Shown here one piece after another: positions 7,881-53,461 of a stretch of 64,000 bases of DNA (positions within the stretch are counted from its first letter, which is position 1; each line of letters begins with the position of its first letter). The stretch is taken from assembly GCA_951406725.2 (NCBI GenBank), contig OX597820.1, positions 13,082,001 to 13,146,000 on the forward strand, in the 5' to 3' direction. The position numbers were made by a program, and so were the translations under genes. This stretch comes from Octopus vulgaris. Its lineage: Eukaryota. The notes under the pieces were generated by a model. That model saw nothing but the letters and a program-made list of their open reading frames with translations. It made no database searches and was not told where the DNA came from.

Positions 7881-8480
7881 AAGGCGGCGAACTGGCAGAA
7901 ACGTTAGCACGCCGGGCGAAATGATTATCGGTATTTCGTCTGTCTTTATGTTCTGAGTTCAAATTCCGCCGAGGTCCACTTTGCCTTTCATCGTTTCGGG
8001 GTCGACAAATTAAGTACCAGTTACGCACTGGGGTCAATATAATCGACTTAATCTGTCTGTCCTTGTTTGTCCCCTCTGTGTTTAGCCCCTTGTGGATAGT
8101 AAAGAAATATATATTTCGTCTGTCTTTACATTCTGAGTTCATATTTCGCCGAGGTCGACTTTGCCTTTCATGTTTTCGGGGTCGATAAATTAAGTACCAG
8201 TTACGCACTGGGGTCGATTAATCTCTTTGTCTGTCCTTGTCTGTCCCCTCTATATTTGGCCCCTTGTGGGCAATAAAGAAAAAGAAATATTAGCACGCCG
8301 GGCGAAATGCCTGTCGGTATTTTGTCCGTCTTTACGTTCTGAGTTCAAATTCCGCCGAGGTCGACTTTGCTTTTCATCCTTTCGGAGTCGATAAATTAAG
8401 TACCAGTTGGGTACAGGGGTCGATTTAATCGACTGGCAGCCTCCCCCACAATTTCGGACCTTGCGCCTAGATTAGAAAAG
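7881..8480 (+). mobile_element. SINE family B trimer
   Basis: Head aaggcggcgaactggcagaaacgttagcac, then three copies of core gttctgagttcaaattccgccgaggtcgactttgcctttcatc...gtcgataaattaagtaccagtt. Confidence 0.92.
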
Positions 8481-10149: not shown

Positions 10150-10885
10150 TACTGCCGCCAATGTTGACTTTACGTTTCATCTTCTCAGGGTAGATGACAT
10201 AAGTACCAGTTTTCCTCCCTCTAAAAAAGGTTGGCCCTGTGCCAAAATTTGAAACCAGTATTATAAATACTGGTTTCTAATTTTGGCACCAGGCCAGCGC
10301 TTTCAGGAAAGGGGATAAATCGATAACATGGACCTCAGTACTCAACTGGTACTTATTTTATCGCTCCCAGAAGGATGAAAGGTAAAATGTGGACTTCGGC
10401 TGGATTTGAAATCAGAACGTAAAGACGTACGAAATGCCGCATTTTACCTCGACAGAGTAACGATTCTTATTTCTTTATTGCCCACAAGGGGATAAACACA
10501 GAGGGGACAAACAAGGACAGAAAAACGGATTAAGTCGATTATATCGACCCTAGTGCGTAACTGGTACTTATTTAATCGACCCCGAAAAGATGAAAGGCAA
10601 AGTCGACCTCGGCGGAATTTGAACTCAGAACGTAGCGGCAGACGAAATACTTATTTCTTTACTACCCACAAGGGGCTAAACATAGAGAGGACAAACAAGG
10701 AACAGACAAACGGAATTAAGTCAATTACATCGACTCCAGTGCGTAACTGGTACTTAATTTATCGACCCCGAAAAGATGAAAGGCAAAGTCGACCTCGGCG
10801 GAATTCGAACTCAGAACGTAACGGCAGACGAAATACGGCTACGCATTTCGCCTGCCGTGCTAACGATTCTGCCAGTTCACCTCCT
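10150..10885 (-). mobile_element. SINE B cluster: plus-strand 3' fragment (10150-10260) tail-to-tail with a minus-strand multimer (10270-10885)
   Basis: Repeated core cgaccccgaaaagatgaaaggcaaagtcgacctcggcggaatttgaactcagaac; palindromic junction aaaccagtattataaatactggtttc. Confidence 0.88.
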
Positions 10886-25428: not shown

Positions 25429-25600
25429 ATAAAAAGACAAAACCCGTCAATGGGCCGAAGAACTCAGAAGAGTCAACGGCCATCCAATAAATTATGTAAA
25501 GTTGTGTGGGTATATTTTGTGTTGTGTGTGTGTGTGCATGTGTGTGCATGTGTGTGTATTCTTGTGTGTATTTTTGTTTATGAATTATTCTGAATAATTT

Positions 25601-25644
<44 letters not shown>

Positions 25645-25869
25645 TCTTTATATATATATATATATATAGAAATTATTCAGAACAATTCATAAACAAAAAT
25701 ACACACAAGAATACACACACATACACACACACACGCTCACACACACACGCTCACACACACACGCTCACACACACAACACAAAATAGACCCACACAACTTT
25801 ACACAATTTATTGGATGGCCGTTGACTCTTCTGAGTTCTTCGGCCCATTGATGGGTCTTGTCTTTTTAT
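25429..25869. repeat. Long inverted repeat centred on (TA)n (arms 25429-25601 and 25669-25869)
   Basis: Arms share tgggccgaagaactcagaagagtcaacggccatccaataaatt and tattcttgtgtgtatttttgtttatgaatt in opposite orientation. Confidence 0.92.
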
Positions 25870-29753: not shown

Positions 29754-32106
<2,353 letters not shown>

Positions 32107-35130: not shown

Positions 35131-35661
35131 CAGGGTTATTCAAAAAGAATATAGCGATTTCATTACGTAATATTTTAATAAGGAAAATAAGGAAACGGAA
35201 TAGAAAACTCCAGCTAAGTCACAAGTATTTACTCACAATCAACTTTTATTTCCTGTCTTACAAGTGTTCAGTGCAGCACGGGCAACATCAATGCGATAAG
35301 GGAACTCCTCCCAGACGCGTATCAGCATATCAAAAAGCAAGTGCATTATGGAACTAAAGAGTAAATTTGCTTTGGTTTGAGACGATTCCAGAAGATATGC
35401 ACATAGAAGGGAAATGGAAAAACTTTGATAAAGCATTCAATCTGACAGCCAAATAAGTAGTTAGTAGGTGGCCATATGCTGATACCTGCCTGGGAGGAAT
35501 TCTCTTATCGCATTGATGTTGCCAATGCTGCAGGTGGTAGCCACATTGAACAATTGTAAGTCAAGAAATAAAAGTTGGTTCTGAGAGCTGGAGGTCTCTA
35601 TTGTTTTTCCTTATTAAAATATTGCGTAATGAAATCGGTTCACTCTTTTTGAATAACTCTG
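35131..35661. mobile_element. Fold-back Tc1/mariner-type MITE
   Basis: Left TA|cagggttattcaaaaaga, right tctttttgaataactctg. Arms of about 200 bp each contain a transposase C-terminus (DMLIRVWEEFPYRIDVARAA; GGSHIEQL*). Confidence 0.88.
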
Positions 35662-40552: not shown

Positions 40553-40850
40553 CTACATTGGTATAGATAGGTATACATATTGTTAGATACATAGATATAC
40601 ATATACATATTTATGTCCTCGTCGTCAAATTATTGGACGATTTAACGATTCGCTATTAAGTATATATAAAATTAACATAAACAACAGTTTGCAATGTTCC
40701 ACCATAAAGGAGAACTATAAATACTACTAAGTGACTGGGGAGTTTGGAAATACCTACAATGCAAGAAATAAGAGCTAAGGCGCTCATATTTGGCGGCAGT
40801 TATAATTCTCCTTTTTGATGAAACATTGCAAACCGCTGTTTATATAAATA

Positions 40851-41257
40851 GAGGTACAGGAGTGGCTGTGAGGTAAGTAGCTTTCTTACCAACCATATGG
40901 TTCCGGGTTCAGTTCCACTGCATGGCACCTTGGGCAGGTGTTCTACTATATCTGCCGACCGTATATATAATATATATATACATACAAATATATGTTTATA
41001 TATACACATGCATATATACATATATATATATATATGTATGTATGTGTGTGTGTGTGTATGTGTGTTATCCCCCAACATCGCTTGACAACCGATGCTGGTG
41101 TGTTTACGTCCCCGTAACTTAGCGGTTCGGCAAAAGTGACCAATAGAATAAGTACTATGCTTACAAAGAATAAGTCTTGGGGTCGATTTCTTCCACAAAA
41201 TGCGGTACTCCAGCATGGACGCAGTCAAATGATTGAAACAAGTAAAAGAGAGTGAAG
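40851..41257 (+). mobile_element. SINE A with internal deletion
   Basis: Head caggagtggctgtgaggtaag, core and tail present. Confidence 0.9.
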
Positions 41258-42345: not shown

Positions 42346-42406
<61 letters not shown>

Positions 42407-42562
42407 ATATATACATATGTGTATATATATATATACACATATATATATGTATATATATACATATATATATATGTATATAAGTGTATATATATATGTATAT
42501 ATATATATGTGTGTGTGTGTGTCTAAGTATGTATGTATATATATATATATATATGTATATAG

Positions 42563-43077
42563 ATAATAGAAATATTAAAATTACTAAGTCTCTATAAAAG
42601 AGATTACGGCAGCGTTTACTGGAAATTAATTGTTATCGCCATATTAATATGGCATTCTTATAGATATAAGAATAATCGCTGCCGCTGGTCAGCTCCATGA
42701 GGCCACCGCCTCATAGATAGCTATTGATACACGATCTGTATCCATTATAACCTTCGAACAAGGGATGTCAGCCGCTTCACACTGCCAGTCCGACAGCTAC
42801 AGACGCGTTTCGGGGTATTGCCCCATGTCAATGTAGCGCAGTCAGACACCGCAGGTGTCGCCACTGACGTCTCTGTTCGAAGGTTTCTATTTACCTAGTT
42901 TCAGTGGAATACATCCACTTGTTTTCAATAATAGAAATATTAAAATTACTAAGTCTCTATAAAAGAGATTACGGCACCGTTTACTGGAAATTAATTGTTA
43001 TCGCCATATTAATATGGCATTCTTATAGATATAAGAATAATCGCTGCCGCTGGTCAGCTCCATGAGGCCACCGCCTC

Positions 43078-43085
<8 letters not shown>
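42563..43085 (-). mobile_element. Retrozyme-like element: 365-nt unit in 1.4 tandem copies (158-bp direct repeats 42563-42720 and 42928-43085)
   Basis: Near-perfect direct repeat with period 365; non-coding; many local hairpins; central hammerhead fold; sits between TA-rich and (GATA)n microsatellites. Confidence 0.75.
42796..42837 (-). ncRNA. Type I hammerhead ribozyme fold with variant core
   Basis: GCUACA-UUGACAU-GGGG(CAAUA)CCCC-GAAA-CGCG-UC-UGUAGC: 6-bp stem I, 4-bp stem II, palindromic ACGCGU stem III, GUC triplet. Confidence 0.72.
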
Positions 43086-43147
<62 letters not shown>

Positions 43148-43149
<2 letters not shown>

Positions 43150-43542
43150 GCGTAGGAATGGCCGTGTGGTAAGTAACTTGCTTACCAACCACATGGTTCT
43201 GGGTTCAGTCTCACTGCGTGGCACCTTGGGCAAGTGTCTTCTACTGTAGCCTCGGGCCGACCAAAGTGAATTTTGTAGACGGAAACTGAAAGAAGCCCGT
43301 CGTATATATGTATACATGTGCGTGTGTGTATATGCTTATGTGCCTGTTTTTGTCCCCTCAACATCGCTTGACAACAGATGGGGGTGGGTTTACGTCCCCG
43401 TAACTTAGCGTTTCGGCAAAAGAGACCGATAGAATAAGTACTAGGCTCACAAAGAATAAGTCCTGGGGTCGATTAGCTCGACTAAAGGCGGTGCTCCGGC
43501 ATGGCCAAAGTCAAAATGACTGAAATAAGTAAAAGAGTGAAA
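43148..43542 (+). mobile_element. SINE A, near full length
   Basis: Family A head, core and tail. Confidence 0.92.
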
Positions 43543-43867: not shown

Positions 43868-44336
43868 TGTGCGTATACACATATATGTATGCCTCTTACT
43901 GCGCCTAGGGTTAAGATAGTGCTATGTGGTGTTGCTCTTATTTCTAGTAATACCGTCTGTCAATAAATTTGCCTTTAGGTTAAATTGTTAATAAGCCACA
44001 CATATTTTTTTATATAGTTTTCACTTCTACCCTTTTTGAAATCAGCACATGTTTACAGAGGTTTTTTTTTTATAAGTCGAGGAGGTGAGTTGACCTTAAC
44101 CCTAGGCGGAGTAAGAGCCACTGACGAGAATTAAGATGTTCTGCATCAAAATTCGAAGTGACTAGTGATATGGCTATGTCTGCAGCCATAGAGAGCTATG
44201 TCTCCCTTGTCAGCTTACTAAGATAGTGCTTTTATGGCTAATGAGTTGTTTTTGACTATTAATTCTAGCAATACTGGCACAATTTTATACCCTCTGTCAT
44301 TTTAGTGACGTCTCTATATACATACATTATATATTT

Positions 44337-44589
44337 TATAAAAGGGCTTAGTAAAATAAATTACTTTGCCGCTTACTGAACTCATTAGAAATAGCAACTA
44401 AAAAACTTTTTTAAAACTATTTCTAATACTTAAAGAAAACCTCTCTCATAAAGGTGAGTTGAGTTGAGCAAACACTTTATGAGAGAGGTTTTTTTAAGTA
44501 TTAGAAATAGTTTTAAAAAGTTTTTTAGCTGCTATTTCTAATGAGTTCAGTAAGCGGCAAAGTAATTTATTTTACTAAGCCCTTTTATA
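44337..44589. repeat. ~115-bp inverted repeat with 21-nt spacer (probable Penelope-like inverted terminal repeat)
   Basis: Arms 44337-44453 and 44475-44589 are near-perfect reverse complements; runs into (TA)n at 44695. Confidence 0.9.
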
Positions 44590-44690
44590 TAATGTAATAA
44601 TTTGAATTCGCCTTAAATGGTCCCTTTGCATACTGAACACTTGGTGAAATTGATTAATAATTAATTAATTTTACCCTCAATTGTTGAAAT

Positions 44691-45473: not shown

Positions 45474-45815
45474 TAAATTAATCAAAATAAAAACATGATG
45501 CCAAGGATTCAGCGGTACATATGTTTCGGGCCTTTATTAGACGGGTTTATAACAATGCATAATGTATGTCTGTGGCCTACATTGAGAGAAGAACGAGATG
45601 GACGCTTCATTTTTATGCTGTTGCCGCATTATGTCGTACGCGAATGAGAGGATTTGCATCTCCAACCAAGAGTTTTTGATGTAATACAAGTTGTTGTGCG
45701 CGGCTGAAGAAGGCCACAGACATACATTATGCATTGTTATAAATCCGTCTAATAAAGGCCCGAAACATATGTACCGCTGAATCCTTGGCATCATGTTTTT
45801 ATTTTGATTAATTTA
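45474..45815. mobile_element. Penelope-like terminal repeat with inverted partial copy (105-bp arms 45474-45578 and 45711-45815)
   Basis: One visible mismatch between arms; ends in (TA)n; contains a hammerhead. Confidence 0.8.
45700..45777 (+). ncRNA. Minimal type I hammerhead ribozyme with canonical core
   Basis: GCGG-CUGAAGA-aGGCC...GGCCc-GAAA-C-AUAU-G-UA-CCGC: 4-bp stem I, stem II with long insert, palindromic ACAUAUGU, GUA triplet. Confidence 0.8.
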
Positions 45816-52658: not shown

Positions 52659-53461
52659 TTGAGAGGCAGTGAGGTGGCAGAAACGTTAGCACGCCGTGCG
52701 AAATGCTTAGTGGTAGTTCGTCTGCCGTTACGTTCTAAGTTCAAATTCCGCCGAGGTCGACTTTGCCTTCATCCTTTCGGGGCGATAAATTACGTACCAG
52801 TTACGCACTGGGGTCGATTAATCGACTTACTACGTTTGTCTGTCCTTGTTTGTCCCCTCTGTGTTTAGCCTCTTGTGGGTAGTAAAGAAATAGGTATTTC
52901 GTCTGCCGCTACATTCTGAGTTCAAATTCTGCCGAGGTCGACTTTGCCATCATCCTTTCGGGGCGATAAATTACGTACCAGTTACGCACTGGGGTCGATT
53001 AATCGACTTACTACGTTTGTCTGTCCTTGTTTGTCCCCTCTGTGTTTAGCCTCTTGTGGGTAGTAAAGAAATAGGTATTTCGTCTGCCGCTACGTTCTGA
53101 GTTCAAATTCTGCCGAGGTCGACTTTGCCTTTCATCCTTTCGGGGTCGATTAAATAAGTAACAGTCGCGCACTGGGCTCTATGTAATCGACTTAATCCCT
53201 TTGTCTGTCCTTGTTTGTCCCCTCTATGTTTAGTCCCTTGTGGGTAATAAAGAAATAAGAAATAAGAATCGGTAGCACGTAGGAGGAAACGCTTAGAGGT
53301 CTTTCGCCCGTCGTAACGTTCTGAGTTCAAATTCCGCCGAGGTCGACTTTGTCTTTCATGCTTTCGATGTCGATGAAATAAATACCAGTTGAACCCTGGA
53401 ATTAATGTAATCGACGTACCCTCGATCCCAAACCTGCTGGCCTTGTGCCAAAATTTGAATC
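52659..53461 (+). mobile_element. SINE B tetramer within a single 17-bp TSD
   Basis: Four core copies (181-bp period for the near-identical ones), flanked by cattattaaagagtcgt at 52642-52658 and 53462-53478. Confidence 0.92.

Follow-up and report, generated by a model that had tools for sequence, protein, structure and literature searches.

What is the compact, hairpin-rich repeat unit that sits inside a microsatellite at this locus, and has selection acted on its structure? The window, by which we mean the whole 64-kb stretch of DNA that was analyzed, is animal-like and rich in microsatellites (116 tandem-repeat rows, ~35% G+C). Comparison of the window with itself gave a period of 365, which defines a tandem unit at 42563-42927. 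This bears out the monomer length of 365 nt given in the preliminary description, which had wrongly begun the unit at 42580.

The unit and its copies

The full unit is taken as a candidate retrozyme monomer on the basis of its period, its fold (z of about −10) and its 471 to 1538 matching contigs per sequencing run, and it is read on the minus strand, the sense of its ribozyme. No open reading frame of at least 100 aa overlaps it. Upstream in the same sense lies a partial copy of 158 nt (42928-43085, minus strand), which carries 1 mismatch relative to 42563-42720, lacks the ribozyme and stops at an internal ATAGATAG, which leads into the microsatellite. The locus thereby holds 1.43 units in total. 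On the left, the target flank is an (AT)n-rich microsatellite (42346-42565), whose final ATAGATA overlaps the unit's first bases; on the right it is an (ATAG)18 microsatellite (43078-43149), which overlaps the internal ATAGATAG of the element. ATAG-like letters are common to element and flank at both ends, and no target-site duplication is discernible at the element (42563-43085). At 42594 and 42714 the two window copies agree in states seldom met in the family, as one template or a local duplication would produce.

Other short repeats lie in the window. A SINE-like repeat that contains a microsatellite, and is probably octopus-type, occurs in two copies (80-82%), at 43138-43515 and 40842-41229; judged by this SINE, from 43150 onward, the window may be octopus-like. 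Related-looking units of 180-186 nt form tandems of two to three copies at 7932-8269, 10466-10836 and 52712-53257; the hammerhead scan found no motif there.

Of 24 listed runs, 20 contain the unit stretch in whole or in part, and these span ten studies and four organism codes. Four runs, one per organism, were analyzed in detail; three of them have the label or size of genomic DNA, none is recorded as RNA and one may be the window's own source. These runs contain 1538, 828, 937 and 471 contigs that match the unit, and all four show the head-to-tail junction (42924-27 to 42563-65), though at low depth. The 365-nt unit is a multi-copy genomic repeat. In one run (X1), junction-bearing contigs account for no more than ~1% of the depth summed at 42927, so the sequence after 42927 is unseen in most copies. 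Four contigs of the same run exit the unit at the point where the second copy in the window stops, passing into (AT)n (a loose end behind 42711).

The hammerhead motif and its relatives

On the minus strand, 42788-42847 is a type I hammerhead motif, as judged from its sequence, a motif scan, pair probabilities and covariation with two metagenome loci, L007 and L012. Helix I has 6 bp (42837-32/42801-796), helix II has 4 bp (42824-21/42815-12) with the loop CAAUA and is followed by GAAA, and helix III is a 6-nt palindrome (42808-03). An outer helix of 7 bp is followed by an internal loop, UGC/U. Pair probabilities of the hammerhead helices reach 0.88-1.0 in the circular fold, and cleavage is predicted between 42802 and 42801. 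This geometry is the canonical metazoan one in the accessible text of PMC4209133 (helix I of 6 bp, helix II of 4 bp and a short palindromic helix III). It is combined here with a U3-A8 core, which the same text reports for the minimal hammerheads of autonomous elements; these have a helix II of 7-8 bp, a helix I of 4-5 bp and an extra base before helix II.

The core of the window copy reads UUGACAU (U3 to A8, then U9), and that of the family U3-U-G-A-N7-A8-A9, with N7 varying in 55-84%. Position 9 (42825, minus strand) is U in the window and A in ~100% of the depth in all four runs, making it a private change. An A9U substitution in the hammerhead core impairs cleavage and probably does so in the window copy, where U9 pairs with G12 at 0.61 in the computed ensemble; our literature search found no paper on the effect of A9U. 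Because its ribozyme is single and carries A9U, the window copy would be unable to release a monomer on its own, and the locus is probably a dead end.

A scan of the 64-kb window with three core patterns found only this one motif, on the minus strand, and none on the plus strand. Searching the window against Rfam gave no hits at the gathering score and, at E ≤ 10, only microsatellite-driven matches with no ribozyme among them. Rfam also returned zero matches in L007 and L012 despite their intact hammerheads.

These two loci come from a search with an unchanged 18-mer from helix II, which matched 26 public loci; the other 24 were dropped because no hammerhead context was visible by eye. Both L007 and L012 have C3-G8 cores. 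Across the three hammerheads, 39 of 39 cells are paired and six of 13 pairs change on both sides (five of the six helix I pairs and the palindrome center), a number as high in 1 of 500 shuffles; this covariation is that of three sequences, with helix II identical by choice of query. L007 (1-1112, minus strand) is a 580-bp head-to-tail repeat with one intact canonical type I hammerhead per unit. In L012, a Penelope-like GIY-YIG frame contributes its 3' end (251-706), which is followed by a possible minimal hammerhead-like motif noted by eye (822-864), then by a (CA)/(TA) microsatellite (918-950) and a hammerhead unit related to that of L007 (955-1439). Scans of viral contigs with the 18-mer and the patterns gave 0 matches, as did a metagenome scan with a pattern that contained the private core base.

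The four runs also contain a second, divergent subfamily, in which the helix III palindrome ACUAGU replaces ACGCGU (45, 39, 25 and 30 contigs, seen as loose ends); ACUAGU is identical to the palindrome of L007 and L012. In a monomer model, the two-base loop is free to vary. That a palindrome was kept when helix III was swapped whole is what a dimer model requires, and it supports action as a dimer of the kind set out in the accessible text of PMC4209133.

Folding and variation of the unit

The preliminary description proposed a branched structure, and computation finds one far beyond chance on both strands. Linear folding of the 365-nt unit gave predicted minimum free energies of −133.4 (plus) and −146.0 (minus) kcal/mol, against shuffle means of −83 and −92; z was −10.4 and −9.5, and none of 100 shuffles folded as well. 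Circular folding likewise placed the energy far below the shuffles, with z of −9.4 (plus) and −10.2 (minus). With RNA or DNA parameters, either half of the unit taken by itself is significant (z −4.6 to −9.3), and folds with DNA parameters are strong too (z −4.6 to −6.4). Folding alone separates neither one strand from the other nor RNA from DNA.

Compared with 174 plus-strand tiles of 365 nt from the window (10 shuffles per tile), the unit ranks fifth by excess energy (−52 kcal/mol versus a median of −2.4). It had been suspected that hairpin density is above that of the flanks, and this rank upholds the suspicion, in a window where z lies below −5 for 22 of the 174 tiles. Three long inverted repeats and one trinucleotide array make up the four tiles ranked above it. 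The strongest-folding tile of the window belongs to a young MITE-like inverted repeat at 45474-45815 (105-nt arms at 99%). A second such repeat lies at 44326-44601 (86-nt arms at 95%), an older inverted repeat with ~200-nt arms at 72% at 35131-35661, and a fold-back palindrome of ~440 bp, partly microsatellite and with 83% identity to its own reverse complement, at 25429-25869.

To call the unit almost wholly built of hairpins was an overstatement, as its paired fraction is 0.61 versus 0.57 and 0.60 in shuffles. The excess resides in helix quality and not in the paired fraction: 11 helices have at least 6 bp, whereas 100 shuffles average 5.3 and 6.1 and reach at most 8 and 10. Such strength is expected for the retrozyme class, since the accessible text of PMC7229834 already portrays retrozyme circles, of 170-400 nt, as highly self-paired. 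It exceeds that of the 580-nt L007 unit, the sole comparator computed, whose energy is no better than that of its shuffles (z −0.7 linear, −0.6 circular).

Every complementary arm in the preliminary description is present in the sequence, and all of the hairpins named there form except one, the first of them being shorter on the minus strand. This first hairpin (42587-605) has 7 bp on the plus strand, including one G.U, and 4 bp on the minus strand. The exception is gacacc-gca-ggtgtc (42845-59), which has a pair probability of 0.00 on both strands because its bases pair with 42782-94; within it, 42848 is variable, at 37-57% of depth in the four runs. Helices with p > 0.5 on both strands are 42607-14/42677-84, 42638-53, 42654-73, 42691-93/42720-22, 42697-714, 42726-42, 42749-71/42864-85 and 42903-19, and 91 pairs are common to both strands, of 107 on the plus and 111 on the minus strand. 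The predicted architecture comprises a cluster of short hairpins with a multibranch arm (42587-42742), in which loops vary and partner changes fall in the stems at 42655/42672 and 42728/42740. A long imperfect rod (42749-42885, minus strand) appears to close around and present the ribozyme, and a terminal 6-bp hairpin (42903-42919) has no substitution listed.

Does natural variation bear on this fold? The variant set has 27 variable places in 28 rows, a minor second row at 42848 having been dropped. Variants are paired at 14 of 27 places on the plus strand and 13 of 27 on the minus strand versus 58-61% expected, a depletion in stems that is not significant (P = 0.13-0.31). For transversions, when two private sites are left out, 4 of 12 are paired (P = 0.05-0.07). 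Eleven variants fall in helices common to both strands, and six of these form three partner pairs (42655/42672, 42728/42740 and 42793/42842) whose changes together restore Watson-Crick pairing; the chance of three is 0.001-0.004. At 42655/42672, where both changes are transversions, the variants take 7.4%/8.7% of depth in X1, 6.6%/7.5% in X2 and 1%/38% in X11. Note that partner changes are unphased, that they may be three single events and that divergent copies are clipped as loose ends. We also considered A-to-I editing as a source of the stem variants; the 8 T/C and 5 A/G sites in the set carry no polarity. At the common stem transitions (42599, 42712, 42740, 42782 and 42793), five of six pairs give G.U on the plus strand and an A.C mismatch on the ribozyme strand, a lean that is not significant. 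The proposal that the structure is under selection is thus supported but not proven, with the three partner pairs among 11 stem variants and the swap of the helix III palindrome on one side and the non-significant stem depletion on the other.

Origin of the unit and related systems

We think it likely that the window copy is a solo, probably disabled member of a non-autonomous, hammerhead-bearing retroelement family, namely a metazoan non-LTR retrozyme, and that this family is probably moved by Penelope-like elements. The family, its junction, its architecture and branched fold, and the microsatellite flanks with their short shared sequence are all directly apparent. Metazoan non-LTR retrozymes have 150-450 bp and <50% G+C in the accessible text of PMC7229834; the unit has 365 nt, 43% G+C, a canonical type I hammerhead, a head-to-tail multi-copy arrangement and a self-paired predicted RNA. 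Penelope-like elements show a microsatellite bias and partial tandems in the accessible text of PMC8557442, and the locus is a partial tandem with 5' truncation in a microsatellite target. The available part of a 2026 preprint (bioRxiv 10.64898/2026.07.22.740005) proposes that animal retrozymes derive, as non-autonomous forms, from Penelope-like elements; by its definition the window locus is not an active one, having one hammerhead, with A9U. For octopus or other cephalopods, our literature search found no retrozyme report, although supplements of PMC7229834, PMC13282606 and the preprint, beyond their accessible text, may list the family; the giant squid genome has 235 hammerhead-1 hits in the accessible text of PMC6962438. 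Our verdict is a new, high-copy family of metazoan non-LTR retrozyme that is common to four organisms.

By analogy with the accessible text of PMC7229834, PMC8557442 and the preprint, we infer transcription, cleavage, circularity and an autonomous partner. Tandem source copies would be transcribed from the minus strand, and two hammerheads, paired via their palindromic helix III, would excise monomers. These would be sealed into circles by a host ligase, and the branched fold may keep the circles compact and stable. An autonomous Penelope-like reverse transcriptase (RT) with its GIY-YIG nuclease could then start cDNA synthesis in an AT-rich microsatellite and go around the circle more than once (1.43 times here), until it stopped where an internal ATAG matches the target.

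It is unlikely that the unit is instead the pseudo-LTR, at the 3' end, of an autonomous Penelope-like element, so that the locus would be a 5'-truncated partial-tandem insertion and the fold would serve that 3' end (RT recognition, processing) and not a free circle. The partial tandem and the microsatellite target are hallmarks of such elements in the accessible text of PMC8557442, and a U3-A8 core is reported in them in that of PMC4209133. In all four runs, more depth is summed at the unit's 42563 end than at its 42927 end; this hints only weakly at 5' truncation, as depth summed over contigs is no copy number. However, the junction lies at the same place in four of four runs, whereas random truncation predicts variable joints, and the geometry is canonical, with neither a helix II of 7-8 bp nor a helix I of 4-5 bp. 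The 150 of 173 filtered window frames that were scanned contain no GIY-YIG or RT domain, bar a distant zf-RVT fragment, and no autonomous partner was found among them. Pseudo-LTR and retrozyme overlap as readings, in that a retrozyme may be a freed pseudo-LTR. A frame at 29814-31127 (plus strand), between (AAT)n arrays, has a zf-RVT match with E 9e-6, just under the cut-off, and is probably a LINE 3' end.

Two further proposals concern replication as RNA. It is very improbable that retrozyme circles also copy RNA to RNA in the animal, with the antisense under structural selection of its own, as the strong fold and the wobble lean might suggest; if true, genomic retrozymes and viroids would be joined by a living link whose U3-A8 core standard searches miss. 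We give hardly any credence to an endogenized viroid-like circular RNA with RNA-to-RNA replication and structural selection in both polarities. Both polarities fold at z of about −10, there is a weak wobble lean to the antisense strand, and RNA-RNA replication is left open in the accessible text of PMC7229834 and PMC4209133. Watson-Crick stems, however, fold on both strands by construction, and the 18-mer has no match in viral contigs. Hammerhead viroids and viroid-like replicons carry a self-cleaving ribozyme in both polarities and replicate from RNA to RNA with no DNA stage; the plus strand of the unit has no ribozyme motif by the three-pattern scan or by Rfam at E ≤ 10, and a DNA stage of the unit is evident from the window and the runs. 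The earlier term "viroid-like" therefore holds as a likeness of shape only, given a multi-copy genomic DNA repeat in four organisms, its insertion in microsatellites and a ribozyme on one strand. Scarcely plausible, too, is selection of the hairpins as single-stranded DNA (either cDNA or a DNA repeat that recombination or rolling circle amplifies) with the ribozyme a relic, for although the DNA-parameter fold is strong and the non-significant lean in stem transitions gives G.U/T on the plus strand, that of first-strand cDNA, the kept catalytic core and the helix III palindrome swapped whole point to selection on an RNA ribozyme.

As a retrozyme, the family unites canonical ribozyme geometry, a U3-A8 core known from Penelope-like elements and the insertion signature of those elements. 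It thus offers a good invertebrate system in which to test whether retrozymes arose from Penelope-like elements, a proposal that the available part of the 2026 preprint considers mainly in vertebrates. With so many copies and so strong a fold, the family also lends itself well to a covariation study of retrozyme circles.

Among known systems, hammerhead viroids and viroid-like satellites are alike in size class, branched fold and hammerhead, whereas the window ribozyme is on one strand only, is free to fold and not blocked, and belongs to a DNA repeat in animal genomes. Penelope-like pseudo-LTRs with minimal hammerheads, as described in the accessible text of PMC4209133 and PMC8557442, share the partial tandem, the microsatellite target, U3-A8 covariation and a palindromic helix III; the window unit differs in its canonical, not minimal, geometry, its fixed 365-nt junction and a locus with no linked reading frame. 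L007 and L012 have an identical helix II and loop 2, a palindromic helix III and a 6-bp helix I, to which L012 adds the same UGC/U internal loop and L007 a head-to-tail repeat; they differ in their C3-G8 core and show no similarity beyond the ribozyme. Set beside published families by description, the unit differs from metazoan non-LTR retrozymes in the accessible text of PMC7229834 (Mytilus, 350-390 nt; axolotl, 330/350 nt; Acropora, 220-245 nt) by its U3-A8 core (theirs is C3-G8), its 1.43 units and its mutated core. It is like them in being a short non-coding unit with G+C below 50%, a single type I hammerhead in each unit, a short palindromic helix III, a head-to-tail junction and a self-paired fold that leaves the ribozyme free to form.
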